Shown here one piece after another: positions 30,210 to 55,728 of a stretch of 64,000 nt of DNA. This DNA comes from Bacillota bacterium. Its GTDB lineage: Bacteria > Bacillota > Clostridia > Christensenellales > CAG-138. A program made the translations under genes and the position numbers. The first letter of the stretch is position 1; each line of letters starts with the position of its first letter. The notes beneath the pieces were generated by a model. That model saw only the letters and a program-made list of their open reading frames with translations, was not told where the DNA came from and ran no database searches. Location: assembly GCA_023435025.1 (NCBI GenBank), contig JAEYSE010000032.1:30424-94423 (forward strand), in the 5' to 3' direction.

Positions 30210-31160
30210 TTACCCCTCGTTGCGCGCGAGCATGGCCGCTCCTACGATGCCAGCGTCGTTTCCAAGCTGCGCAGGTACGATTTTGCCGATCTCATCAAAA
30301 AAGCACTTCTTGCGTACGTTTTCACGGACGGGTTCAAACAAAAAGTCCCCCGCATGGCTGACGCCGCCGCCCAGCGCGATCACTTCTGGATCGAGCAAAT
30401 TGATGCAGGAGGTAATGGCCGAACCCAACTGGTCCACATAGCGATCAAATATATCCACCGCTATGGCATCCCCCGCCTTCGCGCAGTCAATCACGAGCTT
30501 AGCAGTCACCTTATTCATATCGCCTTCCACCGACGTGCAGATCAGCGCGTTCGGATAATCGATCACGCTGCGCCGTCCCTGCTGAATAAGCCAAGTAGAG
30601 GTGCAGACCGATTCGATGCAGCCGTGTACGCCGCAGGTGCAAAGCGGGCCGTCGTGCACAAGCACCATATGCCCAAGCTCCACCCCATGTCCCATGCCGC
30701 CGTTGAACATCTTGCCGCCTAATATGAGGCCGCCTCCTATGCCGGTACCCAGGGTGAGTAGCACGGCGGTTTTGCAGCCGCGGAATGCCCCAGCGTGGAG
30801 TTCGGCAAGAGCCGCGCCGTTCGCGTCATTGGCAAGATACACCGGGATATCCGGGTAGTGTTCCTGCATGGCCTTTTTCAACGGCACATCATGAAACTGC
30901 AGGTTATAAGCATGCAGTACACGCTCGCAGGCCGGATCGATGCTGCCCGGTACCACAATGCCGATGGACTGGAACTCTCCGCTTGCAATATGCAGTTCGC
31001 CCGCAAGCTCCTCCACAAGATTTTTCATTAGGCCAACCGTATGCGGATACGGCTTGCCCGTAGGAAACTTTATGCTGCGCCGGGCGACGATGCGCATATC
31101 ATCATCCACAACTCCGGCCGCGATATTGGTACCGCCAATGTCAAAACCCACCTGCAGCAT
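30210..31160 (-). CDS. glcK: ROK-family glucokinase
   Basis: The 316-aa ORF has VGFDIGGTNI and the ROK Zn motif CTCGVHGCIE. Confidence 0.85.
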   Translation of the reverse strand: MLQVGFDIGGTNIAAGVVDDDMRIVARRSIKFPTGKPYPHTVGLMKNLVEELAGELHIASGEFQSIGIVVPGSIDPACERVLHAYNLQFHDVPLKKAMQEHYPDIPVYLANDANGAALAELHAGAFRGCKTAVLLTLGTGIGGGLILGGKMFNGGMGHGVELGHMVLVHDGPLCTCGVHGCIESVCTSTWLIQQGRRSVIDYPNALICTSVEGDMNKVTAKLVIDCAKAGDAIAVDIFDRYVDQLGSAITSCINLLDPEVIALGGGVSHAGDFLFEPVRENVRKKCFFDEIGKIVPAQLGNDAGIVGAAMLARNEG

Positions 31161-41297: not shown

Positions 41298-41421
41298 CGT
41301 GACACCGCCTTTAGCCTTCTTTTTCTAATTCCGGTTAAGTATACCACAAATTGTATTAGTGCGTATGTCCGATTGTCAAAAATCGTATGCCCAATCCGCC
41401 TTTTACCGGTGCCGCCGCTTC

Positions 41422-41449
41422 ACCAACGCCGCCGCTCCCGCATACCATA
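41422..41449 (+). promoter_or_regulatory. Possible mother-cell (sigma-K-like) promoter for cotJ
   Basis: It reads AC, a 17-nt spacer, then CATACCATA. This fits the AC-17-CATAnnnTA consensus as I recall it. It is by-eye only. Confidence 0.3.
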
Positions 41450-41521
41450 ACAGCAGAAGCCGGCCGTAAAAACGCACATCTACGCGGCCGAACGCCGATC
41501 CAAACAAGGAGGAACACCCAT

Positions 41522-41788
41522 ATGTATCAAAACCAGAATACGATGGGTAGCTGCTGCTTCAAACCATGCGGCTGCCAATTAAATCCTTTGGATGTGAAGA
41601 ACACGCTGCTTGCGGGCAATGTCTGCGAAACCAGCAGAGCATGTGGAATCACATCCAAGGAGGAGCCAGGATGCTTACTCGCGACCGCATTCATCGCAAA
41701 ACAGGATTACAAAGCAGGTTACTGTCCAAATGAAGCCCTGTGCCAGGGTACGATGTTCCCGGAACTTTTGCGCCCGTACTTGCGTTAG
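41522..41788 (+). CDS. cotJA: Spore coat-associated protein CotJA
   Basis: The start is set at MYQNQN after AGGAGGA. The C-terminus (ATAFIAKQDYKAGYCPNEALCQGTMFPELLRPY) matches the CotJA signature. Confidence 0.85.
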   Translation: MYQNQNTMGSCCFKPCGCQLNPLDVKNTLLAGNVCETSRACGITSKEEPGCLLATAFIAKQDYKAGYCPNEALCQGTMFPELLRPYLR

Positions 41789-41798
41789 GAGGCCCAAC

Positions 41799-42047
41799 AT
41801 GGATGCGAAGCAACATGCTCTTCTGATGAAGATCAGCGAATGCGAATTTGTGTGCGTAGAACTCAATTTATACCTCAATACGCATCCCAAGGATAAGGAT
41901 GCGCGCGCTGATTATTTCTGCTACTCGAAAAAGCTTGCGGAATTGATCACCAAATACGAACAGTGCTATGGACCCTTGCTTGGCTTTGGCCATTCCCCCA
42001 CGGATGTGGGGTGCTGGGTTTGTTCACCATGGCCGTGGCAAATGTAA
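41799..42047 (+). CDS. cotJB: Spore coat protein CotJB
   Basis: MDAKQHALLMKISECEFVCVELNLYLNTHP...YEQCYGPL...WPWQ fits the CotJB pattern. TAGGAGG lies upstream. Confidence 0.88.
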   Translation: MDAKQHALLMKISECEFVCVELNLYLNTHPKDKDARADYFCYSKKLAELITKYEQCYGPLLGFGHSPTDVGCWVCSPWPWQM

Positions 42048-42059
42048 GGAGGCTCTGCT

Positions 42060-42163
42060 ATGTGGATCTATGAAAAGAAACTGCAATACCCTGTTAACAT
42101 CTGCTCGCCCGATGTAAGAATGGCTAAATTGCTCATGGCACAATATGGCGGCCCTGATTCGGA
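42060..42163 (+). pseudogene. cotJC: cotJC 5' segment (codons 1-34 plus 2 nt), interrupted by the element
   Basis: MWIYEKKLQYPVNICSPDVRMAKLLMAQYGGPDSE matches the CotJC N-terminus. After 42163 the reading frame continues into unrelated sequence (LSGYKPHKCG...) and stops at 42251. Confidence 0.85.
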
Positions 42164-42183
42164 GCTATCCGGTTACAAACCAC
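42141..42183 (+). other. attL junction with GA core at 42162-42163 and the element-side half-site GGTTACAAACCAC (42171-42183)
   Basis: See the findings. The half-site is the inverted repeat of GTGGTTTGTGACC at the other end. Both lie 7 nt from GA. Confidence 0.75.
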
Positions 42184-42369
42184 ATAAATGCGGGACAAGC
42201 CAAAGGATCAGTGTAAGACTTGGCTTGGCTGGTATGAGCAGAATAAAATGAACAAAAGATATCATTCATATTCCGGTTGGGCAGGCGACTACTTTCATGA
42301 TTTCGGACTTATTGGGTGGGGAGCTTTTCCTCATCTTTTTTTATCTCCTGTCAAAGAAAGGAAGACCAT

Positions 42370-43350
42370 ATGCAGTTTTTTCTATTGATTTTAGGTCTTG
42401 CAATGATTGTGAAGAGCGCGGATGTGCTCATTGACTCCTCATCCAGAATTGCACGCAGGTATGGGGTTTCCTCATTTGTTATCGGATTAACGGTTGTTGC
42501 CTTCGGCACAAGCGCGCCGGAACTCGCGGTAGGGATTGTTTCGGGTATCGCCCGCACAAACCAATTGACGCTTGGGAATATTGTAGGGAGCTCGCTTTCC
42601 AACATCGCTCTCATTGTCGGAATATCATCCATCATCATGCCGCTTCGGGTAAGGGATGCCGTAGCAAAGCGAGAAATGCCCATGTTAATTGGAATCGAGC
42701 TCATTCTTTGCGCCATGATGCTTTTTGACAACGTCTTGTCTAGACTGGATGGCGTGTTCCTGCTGCTTGGTTTTGCCGGATTTATGGCATATATCATCCG
42801 CGACACAAAGAGTTCCACGCAGCCCGAACTCGATAAGGACAACAATATCGATACCGACGGCGAAAGGAACCAGCTTCCAAACAAAAAGAAAGAATCCAGC
42901 ATGGGCAAGCTCTGGCTCTTTTCGGCGCTTTCTCTGGCGGGATTGTTTTTGGGCGGAAAACTGACGGTGGACAGCAGCACGCAGATTGCGCAATCCTTTG
43001 GGTTAAGCGAAACACTCATCGGCCTTACTGTGGTATCGCTTGCCACTACCATGCCCGAGCTCATCACAAGCATTATGGCCGCAGTAAAAAAGGAACCGGA
43101 TATTGTGCTTGGCAACTGCATCGGCAGTAATATATTCAATATCTTGCTCGTGCTTGGTTTTTCCTCCGCCATCTCTCCTATTCCGGTGGAAAGCAGCCTG
43201 ATTTTGGATGCTGCAGCAATGGGAATCGTAACGATATTCTTATTTATTGTCTCTATCATTCAAAAGCAGATCCGGCGGGGTACCGGTATCCTGTTGCTTA
43301 TAAGCTATGTTGGATATCTTTCTTATAAGATTGCTACCGCTTTCATTTAA
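42370..43350 (+). CDS. Ca2+/Na+ antiporter (CaCA / YrbG family)
   Basis: The start is set at MQFFLLILGL. Two alpha-repeat motifs are present (GTSAPELAVG and ATTMPELITS). Confidence 0.85.
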   Translation: MQFFLLILGLAMIVKSADVLIDSSSRIARRYGVSSFVIGLTVVAFGTSAPELAVGIVSGIARTNQLTLGNIVGSSLSNIALIVGISSIIMPLRVRDAVAKREMPMLIGIELILCAMMLFDNVLSRLDGVFLLLGFAGFMAYIIRDTKSSTQPELDKDNNIDTDGERNQLPNKKKESSMGKLWLFSALSLAGLFLGGKLTVDSSTQIAQSFGLSETLIGLTVVSLATTMPELITSIMAAVKKEPDIVLGNCIGSNIFNILLVLGFSSAISPIPVESSLILDAAAMGIVTIFLFIVSIIQKQIRRGTGILLLISYVGYLSYKIATAFI

Positions 43351-43479
43351 CCCAACAACACAATGGATGCCCCACAGGCACTCCTTTTTTACTTTACGCT
43401 TTTACCCGCTAACGTAGGCCCTCAGAACGAGGAAGACATTGAATTGCTCCGCCTCAATGTGCTATGGTGAAAAAAATGG

Positions 43480-44637
43480 ATGGCGGGTGAACCCATGAAT
43501 GTTGAAGTATCCATAGCGCCCTGCGAGGACTATGACCTCAAAAAAGTAAAAAGCGCAATTCAGGCGGCGCTCCGGCCCATCAACGGGCTTGATTGGGTAA
43601 CGCCCGGCATGAAAATCGCCGTGAAAGCGAATTTGATGATGCGGTCAAAGCCGGAAAAGGCGGCGACCGTACACCCGCAAGTTGCAGTGGCATTGTGTGA
43701 GCTTCTGATTGAAAAGCAGGCAAATGTGGTCCTTGGGGACAGCCCGGGCGGCCCTTTTCACCCGGGCTATTTGGCGTCCGTGTACGCAGGTACGGGGATG
43801 ACTGAAGTGCTCAAAACCGGCGCTACGCTAAACCATGACTGCACTTATGAGGAGGTATCCTATCCGGACGCCGTTACTGCAAAGACATTCCAGATCACCA
43901 AGTATCTTTTGGATGTAGACGCCATTATCGATTTGTGCAAGATAAAGACGCATGGCCTGATGGCATATACCGGCGCATGCAAGAATTTCTTTGGCGCTGT
44001 TCCCGGTATGCATAAGTCCGAATACCACTACAAGTACCAGACACACGAGACGTTTGCCAATATGCTTGTGGATATCTGCGAGTGGTGTAAGCCCCGCTTA
44101 TGCATTGCCGACGCCGTAATGGCCATGGAGGGAAACGGCCCGTCCGGCGGGGCGCCACGCTTTATGGGCGCAATTCTTGCCGCTTTTAATCCGCATGCGC
44201 TTGATCTGGCCGCCGCACACCTGCTGAACCTTGGCTCAAAGGATGTTCCGACGTTGCATGCAGCGTATCAGCGCGGCCTCATTCCGCAAAGTGTTTCTGA
44301 GCTCTCCATTCACGGCGATATATCCCGGTTTGTCATACCCGATTTTCAGCTGACTCCGAAGCACGATGTCCAATTGTGGGGATCAAAAAACAAAACCATT
44401 GCGAAGCTATTGTCCAAAATGTTTGCGAGCCGGCCTGCGATAAACCTGAAAAGATGCATCGGATGTGCAGAGTGCCAGAAAGTCTGCCCTGCCCAAGCGA
44501 TTACCATGGTAAATCAAACAGCAAGAATTCAAAAAGATAGGTGCGTGCGCTGCTTTTGCTGCCAGGAGTTTTGTCCCAAAGGAGTTATCAGCGTGCACCG
44601 GCCATATGTTGCGCGCATCATGGATAGTCAAAGATAA
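43480..44637 (+). CDS. DUF362-domain protein with a C-terminal 2x[4Fe-4S] ferredoxin domain
   Basis: It has IAVKANLM...HPQVAVAL...VLGDSPGG (DUF362 pattern), plus CIGCAECQKVCP and CVRCFCCQEFCP. Confidence 0.75.
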   Translation: MAGEPMNVEVSIAPCEDYDLKKVKSAIQAALRPINGLDWVTPGMKIAVKANLMMRSKPEKAATVHPQVAVALCELLIEKQANVVLGDSPGGPFHPGYLASVYAGTGMTEVLKTGATLNHDCTYEEVSYPDAVTAKTFQITKYLLDVDAIIDLCKIKTHGLMAYTGACKNFFGAVPGMHKSEYHYKYQTHETFANMLVDICEWCKPRLCIADAVMAMEGNGPSGGAPRFMGAILAAFNPHALDLAAAHLLNLGSKDVPTLHAAYQRGLIPQSVSELSIHGDISRFVIPDFQLTPKHDVQLWGSKNKTIAKLLSKMFASRPAINLKRCIGCAECQKVCPAQAITMVNQTARIQKDRCVRCFCCQEFCPKGVISVHRPYVARIMDSQR

Positions 44638-44879
44638 CCTCATAAAAAAAGGAACACAAAAGCGAGGCCATATGCGTCGCTTTTCTTTTTTACAGCGAGC
44701 AAAATGTCAGCCTGTCCCACGCCTGGTATATTAATCCTTTTCGCCAAACCGCCCGATATTTTGAAAGAATAGGGTTGCCCCTCATTGCAGGTATTTGTTA
44801 TGATAATAGGGAAAGGCATTTGTTGTGCAACAACTTATACCTCGTTAATTTTCTGACAACAGGAAGAGCAGGTGAAATA

Positions 44880-46214
44880 ATGAAAGCCCATCCTTTTGCC
44901 GGCGGCGTGCATCCACTCAAATCATCCCATCATGGCAAGACACTCTCCAACGAAAGCGCCATCTCCGTCATGCCCGCGCCGGACATTGTGGCAATCCCCA
45001 TGGTACGGGTCACGGGCGCGCCATGTACCCCGCTTGTGAAGAAAGGGGACAGCGTGAAACTGGGGCAGTGTATCGGTAGAAGCGAAAGTTATGTGAGTGC
45101 ACCCATACACGCCAGCGTCTCCGGTACGGTAATCGCCGTGGAAAACCGGCCGCACCCCACGGGGAAAAGTCTCGTGCTTTCGGTAGTAATCCGAAACGAC
45201 CATCTCGACACCAAAGATGAAAGCTACGCACCGCCAGAAAACATAGATGCTCTGAGCGGGCCCCAACTCATATCGATCATTCGTGAAAAAGGTATTGTCG
45301 GCTTAGGTGGCGCCACGTTCCCTACACATGTCAAGCTTACCATTCCCAAAGACAAAAAAGTCGACGTATTGATCGCGAATGGGGCGGAATGCGAGCCGTA
45401 CCTTACGGCGGACGATCGCCTGTTGCAGGAGCATGCCGAAAACGTCATCGCGGGCATGCGGTTCGTGATGCGCGCGCTTCAAGTCAAGCAGGCATTTGTC
45501 GGCATTGAAGGGAACAAACTTCGGGCCATACGCGCCATGCGCGAGGCGGCGAAGGGCACGCCAATTGAAGTATGTCCGCTACGCGTCAAATACCCGCAAG
45601 GCGGAGAAAAGCAATTGATTTACGCCATCACCGGGCGGGAGGTCCCAAGCGGCGGCCTTCCGGCGGACGCGGGCTGCGTGGTGTTAAACGTCGGCACCTG
45701 CAACGCGATCTACGAGGCGGTTGCACTGGGCAAGCCGCTCCTTGAGCGCGTGGTAACTGTGACGGGTGGCGGCGTAAACACGCCCGGCAACCTCCTTGTA
45801 CGCATCGGCATAAGCTTCCGGGACTGCATCGCGTTCTGTGGCGGCATGGTAGAAGATACACAAAAGATACTTTCCGGCGGGCCTATGATGGGCATCGCGC
45901 AGTATACGGACGAAGTTCCGGTGATTGCAGGAACTTCGGGTATCCTGGTGCTTGCCGGGAAAGAAGCCCATGTACCGCCTGCCTCCCCCTGCATCCACTG
46001 CGGGCGCTGTTATCAAGTCTGCCCAGCGGGTTTGCAGCCCTATATCATTTCCGCAGCGGCAGACCGCAGTGACGCCGCGCAGGCGGCTTTGTTCCACGCG
46101 CTTGACTGCGTGGAGTGCGGCGCTTGCGCATATATCTGCCCCGCGCACAGGCAGCTTTTACAGAGCATGCGCCTTGCAAAGCTGAAAGTCCGCGGCGCGG
46201 CTATAAAGAAATAA
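44880..46214 (+). CDS. rnfC: Rnf complex subunit C
   Basis: The start is set at MKAHPFAGGVHP. It has GIVGLGGATFPTHVK, CIHCGRCYQVCP and CVECGACAYICP. Confidence 0.92.
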   Translation: MKAHPFAGGVHPLKSSHHGKTLSNESAISVMPAPDIVAIPMVRVTGAPCTPLVKKGDSVKLGQCIGRSESYVSAPIHASVSGTVIAVENRPHPTGKSLVLSVVIRNDHLDTKDESYAPPENIDALSGPQLISIIREKGIVGLGGATFPTHVKLTIPKDKKVDVLIANGAECEPYLTADDRLLQEHAENVIAGMRFVMRALQVKQAFVGIEGNKLRAIRAMREAAKGTPIEVCPLRVKYPQGGEKQLIYAITGREVPSGGLPADAGCVVLNVGTCNAIYEAVALGKPLLERVVTVTGGGVNTPGNLLVRIGISFRDCIAFCGGMVEDTQKILSGGPMMGIAQYTDEVPVIAGTSGILVLAGKEAHVPPASPCIHCGRCYQVCPAGLQPYIISAAADRSDAAQAALFHALDCVECGACAYICPAHRQLLQSMRLAKLKVRGAAIKK

Positions 46215-46264
46215 TCGGTAACATCCAAGTTCGCCTTATTCGGCATGTTCGGAGGTCATATGGC

Positions 46265-47263
46265 ATGAAGTTGAACGTTTCCCCTTCCCCCCACATCCGC
46301 GCCCCGCAAGATACGCGCTCGCTGATGCGGGATGTGCTCATTGCGCTTGCGCCCGCATGTATTATGGGTGCATATCGCTTTGGCTACCAGGCGCTGTATG
46401 TGCTGCTTCTCTGCACTGCGGCGGCAGTGCTGACCGAGTGGGCATTACAAAAGTTATTAAAGCGTGCCGTCACGATCGGGGATCTTTCCGCGGCGGTTAC
46501 CGGCATCCTCATAGGCATGAACCTGCCGGTTTCTAGCCCGTGGTGGATGTGCGTACTGGGCTCAGTATTCGCAATCGGGCTGGTAAAGGTGCCGTTTGGC
46601 GGCATCGGCAATAATTTCGTGAACCCCGCGCTTGCTGCGCGCGGCTTTCTTTTGGCCAGCTTTCCGGTGCAGATGACGGCATGGACGGCCCCGGTCAATT
46701 CATTCTTAACATCCACAGCGGATGCCGTTTCCACCGCCACGCCGCTTTCCCTGCTGGCGCAGGGCGGAAGCGCGACAGTCGCAGCAACGACGCCAATGCA
46801 GGAGTTTTTTGCGCTCGCTTTGGGGAATAGAGGCGGGTGTATCGGAGAGGTCAGTTCCGTTGCGTTGCTGATCGGGTTTCTCTACCTGCTGATACGCAAT
46901 GTCATCTCCTGGCGTATCCCGCTGATCTATATTGCCACAGTGTTTGTCGGCGTGGCGCTTTTGGGCGGCGGCGCAGGACAGACTGGTTACGCGCCGTTAT
47001 GGGCCGCCGCCATGCATACGGTATCCGGCGGATTGCTGCTTGGCGCGTGCTTTATGGCGACGGATTACTCCACGTCCCCCGTCACCCCCAAGGGACAGCT
47101 GATCTACGCACTGGGCTGCGGGCTACTTACGGTGGTCATCCGCCTGTATGGCGGGTACCCGGAGGGCGTTAGCTACTCCATACTCATCATGAACCTGTGT
47201 GTGCCGCTCATTGAGCGCTATATGCGCGCGCGGGTCTACGGGGAGGTAAAGCGCCATGCGTGA
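46265..47263 (+). CDS. rnfD: Rnf complex subunit D
   Basis: The start is set at MKLNVSPSPHIR. It has the FMN-attachment-type motif FMATDYSTSP. Confidence 0.92.
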   Translation: MKLNVSPSPHIRAPQDTRSLMRDVLIALAPACIMGAYRFGYQALYVLLLCTAAAVLTEWALQKLLKRAVTIGDLSAAVTGILIGMNLPVSSPWWMCVLGSVFAIGLVKVPFGGIGNNFVNPALAARGFLLASFPVQMTAWTAPVNSFLTSTADAVSTATPLSLLAQGGSATVAATTPMQEFFALALGNRGGCIGEVSSVALLIGFLYLLIRNVISWRIPLIYIATVFVGVALLGGGAGQTGYAPLWAAAMHTVSGGLLLGACFMATDYSTSPVTPKGQLIYALGCGLLTVVIRLYGGYPEGVSYSILIMNLCVPLIERYMRARVYGEVKRHA

Positions 47264-47801
47264 TCTTTTACATCTGGGAGGACGGCTGTTTTTGATTTCG
47301 TTAATCGCTGGACTTGCGCTGGGCGCAACCTATTTTGTAACAAAAGATCCGATCGCGGATCAGACACGCCTTGCTGCGGAAGCCGCACGCGCTGAGGTGT
47401 TTGAAGGGACTTTCGCACAGGATACGCAGGAAAAGCTGCCCGGAAACATAAAAACCTTGTACTTGGCCAAGGGCGAACAGGACGGCTATGTGATGGAAGT
47501 GGAGGCAACCGGCTACGGCGGCATATTCACCGTAACGGTGGGCGTAACGATGGACGGCGTGATCACAGGCGTTGTGGTAGGCGACAACAGCGAAACGCCG
47601 GGCTTAGGTAAAAACGCGCAAAATCCCGAGTTCGCCGCACAGTTTGTTGGCAAGGACGGACCCATTTCTGTGAAAAAGGGCGGCGGTGCCAGTGGGAATG
47701 AAGTAGACGCGTTAACCGGTGCCACCATTACCGCCCAGGCTGTAGTGAACGCCGTAAACGAAGCGCGTGAGTTCGCGCTTACGATTGGAGGGCAGTCATG
47801 A
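47256..47801 (+). CDS. rnfG: Rnf complex subunit G
   Basis: The 181-aa ORF has an FMN-binding domain and the motif VDALTGATIT. Confidence 0.9.
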   Translation: MRDLLHLGGRLFLISLIAGLALGATYFVTKDPIADQTRLAAEAARAEVFEGTFAQDTQEKLPGNIKTLYLAKGEQDGYVMEVEATGYGGIFTVTVGVTMDGVITGVVVGDNSETPGLGKNAQNPEFAAQFVGKDGPISVKKGGGASGNEVDALTGATITAQAVVNAVNEAREFALTIGGQS

Positions 47802-48460
47802 AAGCGCTCAAAGTCGTAATTAACGGCATATGGAAGGAAAACCCCACATTCCGCCTGCTTTTGGGCATGTGCCCCACGCTTGCGGTTTCTACCGCAGCAA
47901 TAAACGGTGTGGGTATGGGGCTTGCCGCAACATTCGTGCTGATATGCTCCAACGTATTCGTGTCCTTGCTGCGCAACTTTATCCCAACCAGGGTGCGTAT
48001 CCCCGCGTATGTAGTCATTATCGCGTCGTTTACGACGATTGTGGAGCTGTTGTTAAAGGCGTTTGTCCCCTCGCTAGACAAGGCGCTGGGGCTGTATATC
48101 CCGCTCATCGTCGTCAACTGCATTATACTCGCACGCGCAGAGGCTTTCGCAAGCTCCAATACCCCAATTATGAGCGCGCTCGATGGATTGGGCATGGGCC
48201 TTGGCTTTACGGCGGCGTTGACGTTCTTCGCTTCCATACGCGAGCTGATCGGCGCGGGCAGCATATTCGGCATTTCAGTGCTTGGTGACGGTTATGTCCC
48301 GGTGGTCATCATGCTGCTTGCACCCGGCGGGTTTATTACGCTGGGTTTGGTGCTGGGGGCTCTGAACGCCCTCTCCAACAAGAAAAAGAAGGGAGTGAAC
48401 AGCAATGACATGGCTTGTAAGGCTTGCCCTCATAGCGATCACTGCGGCGCTGGTCAATAA
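47798..48460 (+). CDS. rnfE: Rnf complex subunit E
   Basis: The 220-aa ORF has the RnfE/NqrD pattern (NPTFRLLLGMCPTLAV). Its 3' end overlaps rnfA by 56 nt. Confidence 0.9.
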   Translation: MKALKVVINGIWKENPTFRLLLGMCPTLAVSTAAINGVGMGLAATFVLICSNVFVSLLRNFIPTRVRIPAYVVIIASFTTIVELLLKAFVPSLDKALGLYIPLIVVNCIILARAEAFASSNTPIMSALDGLGMGLGFTAALTFFASIRELIGAGSIFGISVLGDGYVPVVIMLLAPGGFITLGLVLGALNALSNKKKKGVNSNDMACKACPHSDHCGAGQ

Positions 48461-48992
48461 CTTTGTTCTGGTGCGGTTTTTGGGCATCTGCCCCTTCTTA
48501 GGCGTATCCCAAAACGTAAAATCCGCCTCCGGTATGGGTATGGCCGTGACATTCGTCATGGGCATGGCTTCTCTGTTTACATGGATGATCCAGCAGTGGG
48601 TGCTTGAACCTTTGGGCATCGGCTTCATGCAGACCATCGCCTTTATTTTGACCATCGCGGCGCTGGTTCAGTTTGTGGAGATGGTGCTTCAAAAGACGAA
48701 CCAGACGCTCTACAAGGCGCTGGGCGTATATCTCCCGCTCATCACCACCAACTGCGCGGTGTTGGGCGTCGCAATACTTAACATAGAGCAAAACTACACG
48801 CTTATAGAGAGCGTGGTAAACGGCGTGTTTGGCGGCGTGGGCTTCACCATCGCCATCGTGCTGATGGCGGGCGTGCGCGAAAAGCTGGAAAACGCCGAAA
48901 TACCTAAAGCCTTGCGCGGTTTCCCCATTACGCTTCTGGCGGCTGGGCTGATGGCGATTGCATTTATGGGTTTTTCCGGTTTGGGCCGATAA
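48405..48992 (+). CDS. rnfA: Rnf complex subunit A
   Basis: The 195-aa ORF has the RnfA/NqrE pattern (VNNFVLVRFLGICPFLGVS). GGGAG lies upstream. Confidence 0.9.
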   Translation: MTWLVRLALIAITAALVNNFVLVRFLGICPFLGVSQNVKSASGMGMAVTFVMGMASLFTWMIQQWVLEPLGIGFMQTIAFILTIAALVQFVEMVLQKTNQTLYKALGVYLPLITTNCAVLGVAILNIEQNYTLIESVVNGVFGGVGFTIAIVLMAGVREKLENAEIPKALRGFPITLLAAGLMAIAFMGFSGLGR

Positions 48993-49001
48993 GGAGGAAC
49001 A

Positions 49002-49817
49002 ATGACTTCGATTATATGGATCAGCGCGGGAGCAGTCGCCCTTCTTGGGCTGCTGCTGGGGGTGGCGCTGAGTGTGGCCGGAAAGTTCTTTTCCGTAAAA
49101 AGGGATGAGCGTATCGATGCGGTACGGGAACTATTGCCCGGCGCAAACTGCGGCGCTTGTGGCTATCCCGGTTGCGACGGGCTCGCAACCGCGATCGCAA
49201 CGGAAGGCGCAGCCGTTAATCTGTGTACCGTCAACACTGCTGAAAACGCATTGAAGATCGCGGAGTTGATGGGTGCCGACGAAAGCGGAATACAGCCGCT
49301 GATCGCGCATGTGCAGTGCCGCGGAACGCTTGACAATACGCAATTGAAATTTAATTATGAAGGGCTTTCGGATTGCGCCGCCGCAATGGCCATTGCCGAC
49401 GGCACCAAAAGTTGCCCCATGAGCTGCCTGGGCTTTGGAAACTGCGCGCGGGTCTGCCCTGTGGACGCCATCACAATCATCAACGGTCTCTCTACAATCG
49501 ATCACAGCCGCTGCATTACCTGCGGCAAATGCGTTGCGGAATGCCCGCGCCACATCATACGCCTGCTGCCAAAAAACAGCGTGGTGCGCGTGGACTGTTC
49601 CAACGTGCTCAAAGGCAAGGCGGTAAGCGAGAACTGCAAGGTCGGCTGCATTGGCTGCAGTATCTGCGCAAAAAGCTGCAAGTACGACGCAATCACCATG
49701 GTGAACGATCTGCCGGTATTCGACTACGAAAAATGCGTGGGCTGCATGGAGTGCGCAAAAAAATGCCCGCGCCAGATCATCTGGGGCACGGACAGCCCGC
49801 AAATGCAATCCGTCTGA
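49002..49817 (+). CDS. rnfB: Rnf complex subunit B (polyferredoxin)
   Basis: It has an N-terminal TM segment, CGACGYPGCDG, and several CxxCxxCxxxCP motifs. Confidence 0.92.
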   Translation: MTSIIWISAGAVALLGLLLGVALSVAGKFFSVKRDERIDAVRELLPGANCGACGYPGCDGLATAIATEGAAVNLCTVNTAENALKIAELMGADESGIQPLIAHVQCRGTLDNTQLKFNYEGLSDCAAAMAIADGTKSCPMSCLGFGNCARVCPVDAITIINGLSTIDHSRCITCGKCVAECPRHIIRLLPKNSVVRVDCSNVLKGKAVSENCKVGCIGCSICAKSCKYDAITMVNDLPVFDYEKCVGCMECAKKCPRQIIWGTDSPQMQSV

Positions 49818-49845
49818 AAGATGCAGCATATTGTTACAAAAATTA

Positions 49846-49880
49846 AGCGGGTGATTTTTAAAATCCCCCGCTTTTCATTT
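49846..49880 (+). terminator. Terminator after rnfB
   Basis: The stem is AGCGGGTGATTT / AAATCCCCCGCT followed by TTTTCATTT. Confidence 0.75.
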
Positions 49881-49978
49881 ACTTTCAATACTATTGCCAA
49901 ATCGGTGATAATTCGGCACCGCTGTATTTGGAACTACCTAAGCCCAGCGGATGAAGCCCAACTCTAACGCTGGCTTAT

Positions 49979-51256
49979 TTATATCCCCCAGAACAGCCAG
50001 ATCAACACATAACCGGAAAACACGGCGGCGAGCGTGAAGGGTACGCTGACCTTCATGAAATCCTGGGCCTTGACCTCGTGCCCTTCCTTGCGCAGGATAC
50101 CAAGGCCGGCGATGTTTGCGGAGGCCCCAATCGGCGTAAGGTTTCCGCCCAACGTCGCGCCGGCGAGCAGTCCAAAGTACAATACCGTGGGATCAACGCC
50201 CATGATCTGCGCAATGCCTGAAGTAACCGGCAGCATGGTCGCGATGTACGGAATGTTGTCGATAAACGCGGAAAGCAGCACGGAAGTCCAGACTAAAAGC
50301 GTATACATCAGGAACACGTTGTTGTTGCTGATGCTCACGAATATCCGGCTGACTTCGGTGATCACGCCCGCTTCCGTAATGCCCGCAATGACGACAAACA
50401 GCCCGGCCAGCAGCAGCAGGGTGAAATAATCAATTTCCTTGACCGTATCTTTAATGAACGCAACCCGCTTTTTAAACAGCTCCCGCACAATGCCGATCAG
50501 GAACAATCCCACGCAGATATATCCATTGATGTTTTGTGGTTTGTTGGGCAAGAAAGAGGCCAGTATCAACAACACAATGGTAGATACAAGAAGTACGGTT
50601 GGAAAATAATCCTTTACCACAGTGCGCTCACCCACGCTGATGGGCTGGCGTTGTTTCCTAAATACAAACAGCAGCACAAACGCGGAAGCAATTGCTCCAA
50701 TCTGAACCACAAAGAACATGCCAGGTCGGTTCTGGTAGAAGAAAAAGTCCAGGAAATCCATGTTGGCGTAACCGCCCAGCAGTATGGATGTGGTGTCTCC
50801 AACCAGTGTGGCCGCGCCCTGCAGGTTGGATGAAATGGCGATTGCGATAATGGGCATTACGGGCGAAATTTTAAGCTTTTTTGAAATATCCACCGCCACG
50901 GGCGCAACCATGAGCACAGTCGCCACATTGTCCACAAACGCGGAAATGAGGCCTGCAAACAGGGCCAGCGCGATAATTGCCCACCTGACATCAGGCATTT
51001 TATCCAATATCATATCCGCAAGTAACGCGGGCATCTTGGAATCAATAAACAATGCCACAATACCCATGGTACCGAAAATCATCATGATTACATTCCAGTC
51101 GATGGCGGAAAATATCTTGTTGGCCGGTAGAATCCCCAGTATAACGAACATCGCCGCAGAAACGAGCGCGATATAAGCACGCACCTTTGGGAAAGCGATG
51201 AGGCATACATAGGTCACAAGAAACAGAATCAGCGCAAGAGTCATTTTGAAAACCAC
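49979..51256 (-). CDS. ArsB/NhaD-superfamily ion transporter
   Basis: The 425-aa polytopic ORF has an internal repeat architecture typical of CitMHS/ArsB/NhaD permeases. Confidence 0.7.
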   Translation of the reverse strand: MVFKMTLALILFLVTYVCLIAFPKVRAYIALVSAAMFVILGILPANKIFSAIDWNVIMMIFGTMGIVALFIDSKMPALLADMILDKMPDVRWAIIALALFAGLISAFVDNVATVLMVAPVAVDISKKLKISPVMPIIAIAISSNLQGAATLVGDTTSILLGGYANMDFLDFFFYQNRPGMFFVVQIGAIASAFVLLFVFRKQRQPISVGERTVVKDYFPTVLLVSTIVLLILASFLPNKPQNINGYICVGLFLIGIVRELFKKRVAFIKDTVKEIDYFTLLLLAGLFVVIAGITEAGVITEVSRIFVSISNNNVFLMYTLLVWTSVLLSAFIDNIPYIATMLPVTSGIAQIMGVDPTVLYFGLLAGATLGGNLTPIGASANIAGLGILRKEGHEVKAQDFMKVSVPFTLAAVFSGYVLIWLFWGI

Positions 51257-51306
51257 CTCCGTATTATATAAGCCAGGACATCTGCCCTGTCCTATTCACA
51301 CATCCC

Positions 51307-51951
51307 CTATCTTGATTTCAAAAGTATCAGATCATCGTCGGCATACAGTTCCGTTTTTGCATCCAGAACCGCGATTACCTCAGAATTCCGGATAATAGCA
51401 ATGATATTGATGCCTTCCGTCTGCCTCAGGCGCAGCTTTTCCAAGCTTTTTCCCACCCAGTTCGGAAGGGGTTTCATTTCGATGATGTCATATTTTTCAG
51501 ATCGATGGATGGATTCCATGAGCCCGTTTGTAATCAGGCTGTAAGCGACCCTCTCCCCCATCTCCTTTTCAGGCAATATCACGCGGTCCACGCCGATGGA
51601 CTCCAAAATAAGTTTCTGGCGCGAACCGTTTGCCTTTGCAATGATGCAGGGCACCTTGAGTTCTTTTAATATCGTCGCGGTGACGGCAGCCGCCTCAAAA
51701 TCGGCGCTAAACGCGATGATGACCACATCAAAGTTTCCTATTCCCAATTTTTCCAGAACGGCCTTGTCGGAAGCGTCCGCTTGTACGGCATGCGTAGCAA
51801 AATCCGCAGCCTCGTGTACCAAATGCTCATCGATATCGCAGCAGAGCACATGGTGGCCGTTCTCAAACAGCGTGCATGCGAGGCCTCGGCCAAACTTTCC
51901 AAGGCCAAGTATGGCAAACTGCGTGTTTTCATCAACAGTAATCTTATACAT
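51307..51951 (-). CDS. trkA: K+ uptake system NAD-binding subunit (TrkA/KtrA)
   Basis: The 214-aa ORF has FAILGLGKFG (Rossmann, TrkA-N) plus a TrkA-C domain. Confidence 0.88.
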   Translation of the reverse strand: MYKITVDENTQFAILGLGKFGRGLACTLFENGHHVLCCDIDEHLVHEAADFATHAVQADASDKAVLEKLGIGNFDVVIIAFSADFEAAAVTATILKELKVPCIIAKANGSRQKLILESIGVDRVILPEKEMGERVAYSLITNGLMESIHRSEKYDIIEMKPLPNWVGKSLEKLRLRQTEGINIIAIIRNSEVIAVLDAKTELYADDDLILLKSR

Positions 51952-51980
51952 CAGCTTTTACCACCTTATATACTGTTTCA

Positions 51981-53372
51981 TTAACCGATCATAACGTCTT
52001 CATCCGGATATTGGATGCGCTCGTTTACAGTGCTTGTTCGTTGCTGGAGTGAAAGTATGATGGTGATTGGCCCAATCCTTCCGACATACATGCACAGCAT
52101 CAAAAGCAGCTTCCCAAAGGGGGAAAGAAAAGGCGTGATGCCCGTGGATACCCCAACTGTACCCAGCGCCGAAGCCACTTCAAAGAGTAGATCCGCAGGG
52201 GTATGGGCAAATGTGGAGGCGCGCTCCGTAACCGCCAGTATCACTCCTCCGCCCATCCACAGCAGCAGCATAATCACGATAATGGTCAGTGCCCGTTGCA
52301 GCGTAAGCACCGGTAGAGTCCTTCCAAATGCATACATGTTCCGCCTGCCGCTCAACGTGCTCCATACGCTTAAGAACAAAATAGCAACGGTAACAGTCTT
52401 CATGCCGCCCGCCGTCCCGCCCGGCGACCCGCCTATGAGCATCAGGATGCTGGATATCATTTTGGAGGTTTCGCTCAACCCGTTCTGGGCTATGGTAAAA
52501 AACCCTGCCGTGCGCAACGTAATGGACTGAAAGAAGGAGCATATGATCTTACCGCCAACCGAAAGCGGCCCCAACGTTTCTGGATTATTGTACTCCGAAA
52601 TGAAAAAGTAGGCTGCACCACCTACAATGAGTACCGCGGTTGCAATAAGCGCAAGCCTGGAATGCAATGAAAGCCTGTGTTTCCTTTTAATATCCGGCTT
52701 TAGTCTGTATTTGATCTTCAGGCCCACATCCCGCCACACAGAAAAACCGATACCACCCATCACAATGAGACCCATAATGACCAAGTTAATGACGGGATCG
52801 GTCGCATAGGGCATCAGGCTGAATTCACCTAAATTATCGAACCCCGCGTTGCAGAAAGCGGAAACCGCGTGAAACACGCCGTTTGCAATCGCGTCGTACC
52901 AGACGAAGCCCTTATCGAGAAACGAGAATGTCAGTATCAGCGCGCCTATGCCCTCGCAAAAGAATGTTCCGCGGATGACCAACAAGACCAGGCGTACCAT
53001 GCCGCTCAAGTCGTTGATATTGAACGTGGCCTGTACAGTCAGACGGTCTTTTAACGTCACCTTCCTGCCAAGGTAGACAATAAAGAAAGTAAATATGGTG
53101 ACTAAGCTGAGCCCGCCGATCTGAATCAGCAACAATATGACAATCTTTCCGAAAATGCTCCATGTCGTGGCGGTAACAAGCGGAACCAGCCCTGTAACGC
53201 AAACCGCCGAGGTAGCGGTGAAGAATGCGTCCAGCGCAGATACTTCCACTCCCGGCTGGTGCGAGATAGGAAGCCACAAAAGCAGGCCGCCGAACACAAT
53301 CACCGTCAGAAAGCTGATGGCGATTATTCTGGGAGTAGACATGTTCTTCTGTAATCTTGCAAGCGCCTTCAT
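51981..53372 (-). CDS. trkH: K+ uptake system membrane subunit (TrkH/KtrB)
   Basis: The 463-aa ORF has repeated selectivity-filter-like segments (CVTGL, NAGF, RTAGF, GTVGVSTG). Confidence 0.88.
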   Translation of the reverse strand: MKALARLQKNMSTPRIIAISFLTVIVFGGLLLWLPISHQPGVEVSALDAFFTATSAVCVTGLVPLVTATTWSIFGKIVILLLIQIGGLSLVTIFTFFIVYLGRKVTLKDRLTVQATFNINDLSGMVRLVLLVIRGTFFCEGIGALILTFSFLDKGFVWYDAIANGVFHAVSAFCNAGFDNLGEFSLMPYATDPVINLVIMGLIVMGGIGFSVWRDVGLKIKYRLKPDIKRKHRLSLHSRLALIATAVLIVGGAAYFFISEYNNPETLGPLSVGGKIICSFFQSITLRTAGFFTIAQNGLSETSKMISSILMLIGGSPGGTAGGMKTVTVAILFLSVWSTLSGRRNMYAFGRTLPVLTLQRALTIIVIMLLLWMGGGVILAVTERASTFAHTPADLLFEVASALGTVGVSTGITPFLSPFGKLLLMLCMYVGRIGPITIILSLQQRTSTVNERIQYPDEDVMIG

Positions 53373-53416
53373 TCGATATTGCCTTATCTGATCTCTTTCG
53401 TAATACTGCCTGTACT

Positions 53417-53446
53417 ATTATACTCGCTTGAACAGCACCCTGTCCA
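53417..53446 (-). promoter_or_regulatory. Sigma-A promoter for trkH-trkA
   Basis: The reverse strand reads TGGACA, an 18-nt spacer, then TATAAT. Confidence 0.6.
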
Positions 53447-53568
53447 TAAATGTCTTGAACTACTCGGATTGGGTAATGGACTCAAAAACGTACCAAATGG
53501 GCCGCTTTTCCTTCTAGGACAACGATCTCTCCTCATAGTATGACAGTAGCAATAACGGGAGGTAATAT

Positions 53569-53784
53569 ATGGGACGTCTCGCTGTGCAATATTCCGTCCC
53601 GGAAGAAAAGCTCGCGTGGAGCCACCCGCTGCTACGGCTTGTCATGCTCAAATCACTCAAAGCGCAGGGCGTTATTCCGGAGGCGATCTATATGCGCTGC
53701 CTCGAGCAGCTTGACTTGTCGGATGGCTACGATGCGCAAAAAGAGCGGGTGGCTGGAACGATAAAATATGAAGCCGAGCATTGA
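53569..53784 (+). CDS. 71-aa hypothetical protein immediately upstream of the recombinase (candidate accessory factor / RDF)
   Basis: GGGAGG lies 6 nt before the ATG. It overlaps the recombinase start by 17 nt. I recognise no motif. Confidence 0.5.
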   Translation: MGRLAVQYSVPEEKLAWSHPLLRLVMLKSLKAQGVIPEAIYMRCLEQLDLSDGYDAQKERVAGTIKYEAEH

Positions 53785-55435
53785 GAACATGCGCGCCCAG
53801 CTTATTTGGGGAAAGCGGCTGGCGGATATCCCTTTGAGAGCGACGTATTACGCACGGGTCAGCACGGACAGGGACGAGCAGTTGAGTAGCCTGTATAACC
53901 AGAAGGCTTATTTTGAAGAGAAAATACGCGCAAACCCGGCGTGGATATTCGTGCCGGGGTATGTGGACGAAGGCGTGACGGGTACTTCTACAAAAAAGCG
54001 GACGGAATTCTTACGCATGGTGGCGGACGCCAAAGCCGGGTTGTTCGATCTCATATTGACCAAGGAAGTTTCCCGCTTTGCGCGCGATCTGCTGGACTCT
54101 ATCGCCTATACCCGGGAGCTTCTGCATTATGATGTTGGCGTGGTGTTTGAGGACACGGGCTTAAACACCATTGACGCCGATTCCGAATTCCGCCTTGCCA
54201 TTATGGCGACCGTCGCACAGGAAGAATCGCGCAAGCTATCCGAGCGCGTAAAATTTGGCTGGAAGCGCGCACAGGAGGCCGGAAAGCGCCATGGCGCCGT
54301 AGCACCCGTGGGGTATGTGTTCAACAACAAAATCAACGGCTACGACATCGACCCGGAGACCGCTCCGGCTGTACAATATATTTACCGGCGCTATGCGGAG
54401 AATATTGTAGGCACTCGCACCATTGCGCAGGAGCTCAAGGACCGGGGCTATGTTAACCTGAGCGGGAACGCGTACTACCCGAGCACCATACGCCGCATCA
54501 TTGAAAACCCGCTATACAAGGGGTATATCGTAAGCCGAAAATCCGTAAGCATCTCCTACCGCAGCCAAAAAAAGCAATATAACCCTCCTGTGGAATGGCT
54601 GCTGCATTATGATCCTTGCCGCGTACCGCCGCTTGTTACGGAGGATGAATGGGACGCCGCGAACCGCGTAGCACGTTTGCGCGGTGAGTTCATGAAAGGG
54701 ATCGACTGCGGCGCTTATCATAAATCGGGTGGCAAGTATCCGTACACGGGCAAGATTTTTTGCTCCGCCCATCATTGCAATTATCAACGTGCACAGCAGC
54801 AGTGGAACGCTGACGGTGAACCAAAAAAGCGGAGTTATTGGCGCTGTGCCTGCTACAAACGCCCGGAACAGCCCTCCATCTGCGACGCACCGCGCCTGTA
54901 TACGGACCAACTGGACAGAATGATGCGCGAGCTTTTTCGAATACTGATTGACGAAAGTTTGGGCTCATCCCTGCCCGATGTGGTAAAAAGCGCGCTTTCT
55001 GCCCGGGATTGTTCTGCCAAACCGGAAAAGTTTACACAACGGCTGTTGCAGCTTCAAAACAAAAAAGCCAAATTGGTAAAAGGCTGGCTGGACGGCGTGA
55101 TACAGGATGCGGATTATCGCGTTTTGGATCAGGAAATCAGCGGGAAAATCGCAGCACTTGAAGCACAAAAAATGTGCAATCCCGTGCCGGAACAGGTAGA
55201 TTTAGTCGATCTTGAACGGAGTATGCATGAAAACGCCGCCATCAATACGCCGGAAGCGCTCGAAGAACTCATACGCTGCCTAGTACATCAAATACGGGTG
55301 GAACCCGTCCCGGACGAAGCGGGGGCGTATATTCTTAAAGTTGTACTCGATATTCCGGGCGTTGCCTTTTCCGGCACGGAACGCTTTGTGGTTTGTGACC
55401 CGAAAGGGAACTTGCCGCGGGGGTCCGGTACCTGA
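53768..55435 (+). CDS. Large serine recombinase (SpoIVCA/SprA/TnpX class)
   Basis: The 555-aa ORF has an N-terminal resolvase catalytic domain (YARVSTDRDEQ, SRFARD, EESRKLSERVK). It also has a recombinase domain, a Cys-rich zinc-ribbon region (CSAHHCNY...YWRCACY) and a coiled-coil tail. The last 26 nt lie beyond the attR core. Confidence 0.9.
   Translation: MKPSIENMRAQLIWGKRLADIPLRATYYARVSTDRDEQLSSLYNQKAYFEEKIRANPAWIFVPGYVDEGVTGTSTKKRTEFLRMVADAKAGLFDLILTKEVSRFARDLLDSIAYTRELLHYDVGVVFEDTGLNTIDADSEFRLAIMATVAQEESRKLSERVKFGWKRAQEAGKRHGAVAPVGYVFNNKINGYDIDPETAPAVQYIYRRYAENIVGTRTIAQELKDRGYVNLSGNAYYPSTIRRIIENPLYKGYIVSRKSVSISYRSQKKQYNPPVEWLLHYDPCRVPPLVTEDEWDAANRVARLRGEFMKGIDCGAYHKSGGKYPYTGKIFCSAHHCNYQRAQQQWNADGEPKKRSYWRCACYKRPEQPSICDAPRLYTDQLDRMMRELFRILIDESLGSSLPDVVKSALSARDCSAKPEKFTQRLLQLQNKKAKLVKGWLDGVIQDADYRVLDQEISGKIAALEAQKMCNPVPEQVDLVDLERSMHENAAINTPEALEELIRCLVHQIRVEPVPDEAGAYILKVVLDIPGVAFSGTERFVVCDPKGNLPRGSGT
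55388..55430 (+). other. attR junction with element-side half-site GTGGTTTGTGACC (55388-55400) and GA core at 55408-55409
   Basis: It is the inverted repeat of the left-end half-site (12/13 match) at the same 7-nt distance from GA. Confidence 0.75.
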
Positions 55436-55728
55436 CACAGCGTTTTTCCATGCCGGATAACCGGGTCCGCGCAACGGTAAACGACATCGGCACGGAGGAA
55501 CTTGCCCACTGGGAAATGATCGGAACCATGATCCATCAGTGCATGAGGGGCGCTACCGCCTCGGAGCTTAGGGCGGCGGGGCTGGAAGGGTTCTATACCA
55601 TGCACGACTGCGGCGTATTCCCCGCAGACCCCAACGGCGTCCCCTTTACAGCATCGTATATCCAATGTACGGGCGACCCCATTGCAGACCTTCACGAAGA
55701 CCTTGCAGCAGATGCTGCGATCGCATAA
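55410..55728 (+). pseudogene. cotJC: cotJC 3' segment (resumes at codon 35, then ends prematurely relative to canonical CotJC)
   Basis: In-frame translation is (E)LAAGVRYLTQRFSMPDNRVRATVNDIGTEELAHWEMIGTMIHQ...GVPFTASYIQCTGDPIADLHEDLAADAAIA*. This matches CotJC from the GELAAALRYL region on. It stops about 50 residues early. Confidence 0.8.

Follow-up and report, generated by a model that had tools for sequence, protein, structure and literature searches.

A 13.2-kb non-prophage element in the spore-coat gene cotJC of an uncultured Clostridia lineage is bounded by putative serine-recombinase attachment sites with a central GA

The window, i.e. the whole stretch of 64,000 nucleotides analysed here (positions 30,424 to 94,423 of contig JAEYSE010000032.1, from a Christensenellales bacterium), contains a cotJA-cotJB-cotJC operon in which cotJC, the gene of a manganese-catalase-family spore-coat protein, is split by an intervening element of 13.2 kb. 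In Bacillus subtilis, cotJ is expressed in the mother cell in a sigma-E-dependent manner. The break is placed inside the Glu35 codon, between its second and third bases, within the conserved GG(P/A)D(S/G)ELAA motif, and the element that occupies it carries, among others, rnf, citMHS and trk genes, together with a large serine recombinase gene preceded by a small open reading frame (ORF). Joining the two parts of cotJC in silico at the GA dinucleotide present at both junctions produced an in-frame CotJC of 140 aa, which matched the Pfam family Mn_catalase (E 1e-37) and aligned free of indels with intact cotJC genes from metagenomes. The sequences at the two junctions, 42141-42183 and 55388-55416, are very probably the attL and attR sites of a non-phage element, at which the recombinase would restore cotJC by precise excision at GA.

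At the left junction, GATTCG (42156-61) is followed by GA (42162-63), GCTATCC (42164-70) and GGTTACAAACCAC (42171-83), and the right junction is composed of GTGGTTTGTGACC (55388-400), CGAAAGG (55401-07), GA (55408-09) and ACTTGCC (55410-16). The union of the element-side halves reconstructs an attP site, GTGGTTTGTGACC-CGAAAGG-GA-GCTATCC-GGTTACAAACCAC, whose inverted-repeat arms are complementary at 12 of 13 positions and are separated from the core by a spacer of 7 nt on each side. The first-pass annotation of this DNA had already reported these junction sequences, coordinates, arms and equal spacers, and every one of them was recovered here. The longer junctions predicted from the window are ...GACCCGAAAGG-GA-GCTATCCGGTTAC... 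for attP and ...CCTGATTCG-GA-ACTTGCCGCG... for attB, the latter with the core context GATTCG-GA-ACTTGCC. About the GA, 18 of the 25 attP positions are complementary, with the arms at positions 8-23, and displacement of the centre by 1-3 nt lowered this count to 5-11. The annotation had also held the host-side halves to be far less symmetric, and the reconstructed attB indeed reached 5/25 about the same GA, in contrast to the 18/25 of attP. Such a disposition is characteristic of large serine recombinases, whose att sites span 40-60 bp, attP forming an imperfect inverted repeat centred on a dinucleotide, with little symmetry in attB (PMC5499854; PMC3783163).

The attP symmetry was evaluated against chance with a binomial model at the pre-fixed centre and with 2,000,000 random position pairs drawn within the window. 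The binomial probability of 18/25 at the fixed GA centre was 1e-6 to 4e-6, and five of the 2,000,000 random pairs attained this value. When not conditioned on position, the inverted repeat is ordinary, being pair I14 of 294 in 14.5 kb, and 1.9 occurrences of a 13-mer with at most two mismatches are expected by chance per window. The repeat is therefore non-random by virtue of its exact placement against both break points of a single gene, and would be unremarkable otherwise. Relatives of the recombinase were gathered from protein, genome and metagenome collections (loci designated by L numbers), and the homology of one of them, L006, with the window runs about 37 nt into the element past the attL core (to 42200) and then ends, which fits a half-site of about 25 bp.

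The proposal that these ends form a serine-integrase attP was supported by the nature of the enzyme as well as by the 18/25 symmetry, since the sole recombinase found in the element is a large serine recombinase. Its product of 555 aa matched the Pfam families PF00239 Resolvase (93.8 bits, cut-off 23.3) and PF07508 Recombinase (69.7 bits, above the cut-off), and the zinc ribbon PF13408 scored 24.6 bits, just below its cut-off of 25.3. The catalytic Ser32 is placed in an RVSTD motif, of which R30-V31-S32-T33 are invariant across 13 relatives, and the putative zinc ligands C332, H335, C360 and C372 are invariant in the alignment of relatives. It also matched the PHROG 95 integrase with an E value of 4e-99. 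An AlphaFold2 model with a mean predicted local distance difference test (pLDDT) of 70 presented, in the order expected of such enzymes, a catalytic domain, a long helix, a recombinase domain, a beta ribbon (residues 330-360) and a helical hairpin (residues 419-441/447-468). Foldseek searches with the full-length model retrieved 9y66, 9dxd, 9tep, 9iu2 and 4kis (E 1e-20 to 1e-12), including DNA complexes of the PhiC31, Bxb1 and Listeria integrases, and the nearest solved catalytic domain was 3g13, from a Clostridioides difficile conjugative-transposon recombinase (E 1e-33, 37-39% identity).

The recombinase reading frame runs through attR and ends in the tail RFVVCDPKG-NLPRGSGT*, whose part after the hyphen is cotJC DNA read in another frame, and the six closest recombinase relatives terminate likewise. 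In the excised form, the tail is predicted to become ...GSYPVTNHINAGQAKGSV, i.e. ...DPKG-SYPVTNHINAGQAKGSV, encoded by the P′ side (42164-42214). The C-terminal tail of the recombinase would thus depend on the recombination state, because the reading frame crosses the attachment site.

Table 1. Features of the split cotJC locus; positions are those of the window.
Feature	Position	Strand	Basis or remarks
cotJA, first gene of the interrupted operon	41387..41788	+	Pfam CotJA PF11007, E 4.6e-10; syntenic in L006, L109 and L118; true start codon uncertain
cotJB	41799..42047	+	Translation MDAKQHALL...PWPWQM*; 95% identical to L006 cotJB; equivalent product has Pfam CotJB in L006 and L109
cotJC 5′ part	42060..42163	+	Codons 1-34 and GA of the Glu35 codon; translation MWIYEKKLQYPVNICSPDVRMAKLLMAQYGGPDS; collinear with the uninterrupted gene of L087, L109 and further loci
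attL (host B half-site, GA core 42162-63, element P′ half-site)	42141..42188	+	Outer limits approximate, from typical site sizes of the recombinase type
Intervening element	42164..55409	+	13,246 bp with one GA copy counted; bounded by attL and attR
P′ arm	42171..42186	-	GGTTACAAACCAC extended to ...CATA; minus-strand reading TATGTGGTTTGTAACC; 12/13 complementary to 55388-55400
Na/Ca exchanger	42316-43350		Pfam
DUF362 Fe-S protein	43480-44637		Pfam
rnfCDGEAB	44775-49817		Pfam
citMHS	49979-51256	-	Pfam
trkA	51307-51951	-	Pfam
trkH	51981-53372	-	Pfam
Small ORF, 71 aa	53569..53784	+	Overlaps the recombinase start by 17 nt; candidate directionality factor
Large serine recombinase, 555 aa	53768..55435	+	Last 8 codons and stop in cotJC DNA past the crossover
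attR (element P half-site, GA core 55408-09, host B′ half-site)	55383..55430	+	Outer limits approximate
P arm	55385..55400	+	TTTGTGGTTTGTGACC; within the recombinase coding sequence, codons F-V-V-C-D
cotJC 3′ part	55410..55728	+	Third base of the Glu35 codon to stop; joined ORF matches Pfam Mn_catalase

Comparison with relatives allowed the crossover to be located more closely than in the window, where the first-pass annotation had described the two junctions as sharing the dinucleotide GA. This dinucleotide is present at both, and the stretch common to attL and attR is actually of three nucleotides, GGA (42161-63; 55407-09), so that the window alone cannot separate a crossover at GG from one at GA. 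The same layout of element and split gene was observed in L001/L002, L006, L117/L118 and L121, and the close recombinase clade to which the window belongs (71-100% identity) preserves it in at least five species-level lineages. The attL and attR sites of L006 are GATTCA-GA-GGACTAC-GGTCACAAATCAC and GTTGTTTGTGACC-CGAAAGA-GA-GCTTGCC, and those of L117 are GATTCG-GA-TGAGTAT-GGTCACAAACTAC and GTAGTTTGTGACC-CGAAAGG-GA-GCTTGCC. A more distant clade (44-48% identity) adjoins cotJC at the same codon in 11 of 12 assessable loci, and the complete element of 5.4 kb found in L011 has the attP TTATCCCTTTGCTTGCGC-CGACA-GA-TGTGT-GCGCAAACAAAGGGATAA. One distant-clade recombinase, L017 (10001-11617; 45% identity), presented no adjacent cotJ sequences. 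The identity between attL and attR is GGA in L117 as in the window, AGAG in L006 and exactly GA in L011. Moreover, the attP of these relatives was also symmetric about the core, with 14/25 positions in L006, 21/25 in L011 and arms complementary at 13/13 positions in L117. The tetranucleotide TTTG occupies positions 16 to 13 from the GA in all half-sites of both clades, and this constancy indicates that the register of the protein-binding motif to the crossover is conserved.

The orientation of the elements provided a further line of evidence, since the central dinucleotide sets polarity in serine integrase sites (PMC5499854; PMC3783163). Read in the direction of the recombinase, the core is GA at the two loci whose element runs in the direction of cotJC (L011, L012) and TC at the seven loci whose element is inverted (L010, L013-L016, L018, L059). 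Such a flip, a correlation over nine loci, is what would be expected if the GA of the Glu35 codon were the crossover dinucleotide that sets polarity. The earlier claim that the site geometry pinpoints the crossover to the base can therefore be upheld for GA on the strength of four complete relatives, one empty site and the nine-locus polarity flip, with the one refinement that the identity within the window permits GG as well.

Empty sites were found in the same group of organisms. The joined CotJC predicted from the attL and attR of L006 was present verbatim in the protein collection, and the contigs that encode it (L109-L114; the fetched ones of up to 502 kb) have cotJA-cotJB-cotJC without a break and, after it, the same ABC-F gene. 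The flanks of L109 and L006 were 99.6% identical on the left and 97.2% on the right, and their blastn alignments overlapped by the 4 nt AGAG, the attB of L109 being GGCGGCCCTGATTCA-GA-GCTTGCCGCAGGGGTCCGG. The L006 species is thus polymorphic, its filled and empty sites differing exactly at the predicted core. In addition to L109-L114, empty attB sites were observed in L086 and L087.

Selection was estimated as the ratio of nonsynonymous to synonymous substitution rates (omega). For cotJC, it was 0.018 in the 5′ half (versus L006) and 0.012-0.095 in the 3′ half at a synonymous divergence (dS) of 0.35-0.86 (versus L001, L006 and L008). The recombinase presented values of 0.14-0.17, the small ORF of 0.2-0.5, and, in the cargo, trkH of 0.06-0.08 and rnfD of 0.08-0.13. 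Conservation also extends to the non-coding P′ arm, 10 of whose 13 positions are invariant in the window, L006, L117 and L121, the adjoining 7-nt spacer and the outer sequence being variable, and L117 carries an A in both arms where the window carries a G in both. The nucleotide identities of flanks, cargo and recombinase all grouped the window, L001, L117 and L006 in the same manner. The simplest reading would be that the element was already in the cotJC of their common ancestor and was inherited vertically from then on, with cotJC functional throughout. A cotJC that is functional while split would require regular and precise rejoining in cells that do not pass on the excised chromosome.

A mechanism can be proposed along the lines of serine integrase chemistry, in which the cleaved ends have 2-nt 3′ overhangs and a covalent phosphoserine link. 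Dimers of the recombinase would bind the arms of 13-16 nt that start 8 nt either side of the centre, and both strands would be cut at the central GA with 2-nt overhangs, after which one pair of half-sites would rotate and be religated (PMC5499854; PMC3783163). Recombination between attL and attR would free a circle containing attP and leave the in-frame 140-aa cotJC, and the reverse reaction, between attP and attB, would insert the element, in an orientation that would be fixed by the non-palindromic GA. By analogy with skin, SPbeta and gin, excision would probably require the 71-aa protein as a directionality factor and would probably occur in the mother cell during sporulation, leaving the element in place in the germ line.

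Two alternative interpretations concern the ends themselves. A crossover at the adjacent GG of the window (42161-62; 55407-08) is formally possible, attL and attR having GGA in common, and is nevertheless a very improbable choice, because a GG centre is symmetric at 6/25 positions versus 18/25 for GA and leaves unequal spacers of 6 and 8 nt, the common identity is GA only in L011 and contains no GG in L006, and TTTG stands at a constant distance from GA throughout the half-sites of the two clades. The ends could also be regarded as the terminal inverted repeats of a DDE-type transposon, with GA or GGA as target-site duplication, as a single GA in the empty site and one at each end of the filled site are formally what a 2-bp duplication would produce. 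This explanation deserves almost no credence, given that no transposase was found among the scanned ORFs between the ends, where the only recombinase found is of the serine type, and that the repeats begin 8 nt inside the ends instead of being terminal. In addition, the apparent duplication would vary among relatives from 2 to 3 and 4 nt, and one codon of one gene is targeted across recombinases that are 44-100% identical.

The remaining alternatives accept the sites and differ on their present use. According to one, they are real relics of a dead system, the element having been fixed in cotJC after the loss of excision, with the symmetry as a fossil. The absence of an excised window-species product on record, the long vertical inheritance implied by the congruent divergence of flank, cargo and recombinase, the housekeeping appearance of the cargo and the decay of the recombinase module in L004/L115 would all suit such a fate. 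Nevertheless, a permanently split cotJC should decay, yet both halves showed omega values of 0.01-0.09 at dS of up to 0.86. The recombinase is itself constrained and has an intact catalytic motif, the P′ arm is conserved in non-coding DNA and changes together with the P arm, and in the L006 species the difference between filled and empty sites falls exactly at the core; we consider a dead system improbable. Somewhat less remote, and still unlikely, is the view that the sites are active and the element is mainly a horizontally mobile island using cotJC as a landing pad, without any developmental switch and with cotJC inactive while occupied. It would account for the coexistence of filled and empty sites in the L006 species and for a cargo that varies next to attL among relatives and is entirely different in the distant clade, and it would agree with the outcome of the promoter search, in which no convincing sporulation promoter was recognised. 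Against it, the congruent divergences of flank, cargo and recombinase in the window, L001, L117 and L006 give no sign of recent transfer, and the halves of the split gene are strongly purified in the lineages that carry the element, which requires regular rejoining. Moreover, no transfer, replication or packaging genes were found among the scanned ORFs, and excision during sporulation is the rule for every such element so far studied in a mother-cell gene (PMC6957869; PMC5595907). An excisable element that rebuilds cotJC thus remains the preferred interpretation. The first-pass annotation's inference that the sites are still recombination-competent is likewise well supported, by selection on the split gene and the recombinase and by the conservation of the arms.

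Several observations weigh against this interpretation. The window is a scaffold assembled from a metagenome, with a layout that recurs in independent assemblies. In the collection of 15 billion proteins, no exact match was found to the joined CotJC of the window species, nor were the attP-form recombinases of the window and L006 encountered. The conservation of the P arm and its spacer is in part a coding constraint, because they lie inside the recombinase coding sequence. The zinc-domain motif of attB, which the Listeria integrase model would place shifted 5 bp inward, was not recognisable by manual inspection. The small ORF had no match in Pfam or PHROGs and no detectable similarity to known directionality factors, and the region upstream of it offered no convincing promoter of the sigma-E or sigma-K type. 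Finally, the evidence for activity is evolutionary or comparative, and it is from such evidence that we infer continued excision in the organism of the window, its timing and the role of the small ORF.

All the relatives inspected, whichever their clade, have a related small ORF directly upstream of the recombinase gene, with the motif (V/A)M(L/I)(K/E)(S/A)L(K/Y/F)(A/K)Q in common. By analogy with GirX and SprB, the 71-aa product is a candidate recombination directionality factor. In both clades, a conserved CATA-type motif precedes the small ORF by 25-45 nt. In the window (53511-53548), L001, L006 and L008, the sequence kept in this region is TTCTAGGACAAC-N11-12-TCATA(G/A)(T/A)ATG(A/G)CAGTA, and motifs of the type GCATAA(A/G)(C/A)AT stand at a similar distance in the distant clade. 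These CATA-type motifs may be mother-cell promoters; their spacing misfits the sigma-E/sigma-K consensus of B. subtilis, and they were not counted as evidence. A scan for sigma-70 promoters revealed nothing convincing or strong for the small ORF and recombinase. On the minus strand at 53417-53446, a near-consensus sigma-70-type promoter (TGGACA-18-TATAAT) faces trkH, and the trk genes therefore appear to own a vegetative promoter within the element.

The element is not a prophage and belongs to the non-prophage subclass typified by gin, because its cargo consists of transporters, rnf and trk genes and the viral relatives of its recombinase are only 32-44% identical. In fact, a phage origin of the recombinase was considered and discarded on account of these identities in viral contigs, which were the closest found. 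Three exact viral matches to TTTGTGACCCGAAAGRGA were likewise attributed to chance, as they were not at the 3′ ends of recombinase genes. No phage-like genes were detected among the scanned cargo ORFs with Pfam, and when the recombinase and the small ORF were compared with PHROGs, only the recombinase matched. The cargo adjacent to attL (42200-44754 in the window) is variable: the window carries the exchanger and DUF362 genes, L001 and L117 carry DUF362 only, and L006 and L121 carry neither. The L117 element is also devoid of trkAH. Cargo is thus gained and lost inside the element, and that of the distant clade is unrelated, being composed of esterase, DUF6034 proteins and a sigma factor. The exchanger of the window was found to be 66% identical to one located beside rnfC in L119.

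The rnf-citMHS-trkAH block was also encountered in other settings. In L119/L120, it occupies an ordinary chromosomal context, with neither a recombinase nor cotJ nearby. In L004 (9801-20145) and L005, the block lies at a FloA/V-ATPase locus as a circular permutation that runs small ORF, recombinase, rnf...trkH, and the recombinase (64-69% identity) is unusually diverged, with a different C-terminus. The same FloA/V-ATPase locus in L115 (9216-18359) and L116 is 96-99% identical to L004, with the recombinase gene deleted and the small ORF kept. The L004 layout resembles a fixed circle junction, which may be ancestral or derived. It was considered as a natural attP junction and set aside, as about 150 nt spanning attP are deleted there, so that it provides no direct read of attP. 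As to whether L109 belongs to the same genome as L004/L115 or as L119, cargo and flank distances argue against L004/L115, and the membership in metagenome-assembled genomes (MAGs) is uninformative or possibly chimeric. In MAG GCA_023426265.1, the cotJC element of L117 type in L118 coexists with L148, a short trkH-trkA-citMHS contig whose TrkH is identical to that of L004, which corresponds either to two copies of part of the block in one genome or to a chimeric bin. As a tentative scenario, and one we would rather doubt than endorse, a vertically inherited recombinase cassette came to enclose core chromosomal genes (Rnf, CitMHS and Trk), which the mother cell would loop out when rebuilding cotJC, and the arrangements of L119, L004 and L115 would be traces of relocation driven by the recombinase and followed by its decay.

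The CotJC reconstructed here is a short form of 140 aa, compared with about 189 aa in B. subtilis, and is devoid of the C-terminal ~50 residues. In the window, L001, L006, L109 and L117, the short protein ends in AADAA(I/T)A and the RE(R/V)..H motif of L008, L011, L012 and L087 is missing. The possibility that the short cotJC is a pseudogene was rejected, since purifying selection on the short form is strong and empty sites encode it too. It is the normal form of the group and not the product of damage, because it was found in four relatives, including genomes with empty sites, under strong selection. In L086 (3263-5052), cotJC is intact at Glu35 and is split instead between DIG and TEE of the motif at residue 63, by an element with a different serine recombinase of 555 aa, convergently oriented, whose 3′ end again overlaps the junction. 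Two recombinase lineages thus target the gene, at one conserved (metal-ligand) motif each.

The element is a new case within the known intervening elements of sporulation genes (skin, SPbeta, vfbin and gin), unusual mainly for its cargo of core energy metabolism. Its closest described counterpart is gin, found in gerE of Bacillus cereus ATCC 10987 and served by GirC and GirX, which is also non-prophage and also interrupts a mother-cell sporulation gene (PMC5595907). Both combine a large serine recombinase with a very small upstream or partner protein without known motif, a partnership that is a candidate only in the present case, and in both the element-side site forms an imperfect inverted repeat centred on a dinucleotide, with the frame restored by excision in gin and in the predicted product here (PMC5595907). 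They differ in the target, cotJC in place of gerE, and in the cargo, which here comprises rnf, citMHS and trk. In addition, attP and attB have only 2-4 nt in common, versus the 9-bp shared sequence of gin, and the small ORF, of 71 aa as opposed to the 42 aa of GirX, is translationally coupled upstream of the recombinase and unrelated in sequence. The gin element has been studied experimentally, whereas the present one is known from sequence alone.

The classical prophage-derived cases are SPbeta in spsM (SprA/SprB) and skin in sigK (SpoIVCA) of B. subtilis, where, as proposed here, a large serine recombinase rebuilds a sporulation gene in the course of development, attP is likewise highly symmetric about a central dinucleotide and attB barely so, and the crossover likewise falls inside the codon of a conserved residue (PMC5499854; PMC4191935). 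Unlike the cotJC element, these are prophages or prophage remnants, and SPbeta has an AA core and a 16-bp sequence common to its four att sites, whereas the sites described here have essentially GA alone in common and are crossed by the recombinase frame. The target of TndX (Tn5397) always has a central GA as well (PMC4430133). TndX and TnpX (Tn5397, Tn4451) act on conjugative or mobilisable transposons and are less strict in their choice of target, whereas no transfer genes were found among the scanned ORFs here and the whole recombinase clade targets a single codon. The Listeria A118/LI integrase (4KIS) and the serine integrase complexes solved by cryo-electron microscopy share with the model of the present recombinase the catalytic domain, the recombinase domain and the zinc ribbon with an inserted hairpin (PMC3783163), and the pseudo-palindromic attP with half-sites of about 25 bp is a further likeness to the Listeria enzyme (PMC3783163). 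The sequence identity to these enzymes is of 13-17%, and the inward shift of 5 bp predicted for attB is the feature that was not recognised. The gene cotJC is named as a target of intervening elements in a passage of a preprint that cites Abe et al. 2013 for it (bioRxiv 10.1101/2021.11.22.469490). In the literature searched, in which Abe et al. 2013 figured through that citation only, no att-site anatomy, recombinase clade or rnf cargo of cotJC elements was found.

With sites defined to the base and natural variants available (four complete elements, an empty site and both orientations), this system offers a test bed for how arms and dinucleotide are read by large serine recombinases. The new attP/attB pair, with its minimal overlap of 2 bp, is of the orthogonal-site type wanted for genome engineering. 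Moreover, the housekeeping-operon cargo takes the non-prophage concept introduced with gin outside Bacillus and makes one ask by what route core genes enter an excisable cassette. In uncultured Clostridia, a whole recombinase clade is specialised on one metal-ligand codon of cotJC, and a second lineage hits the same gene between DIG and TEE.

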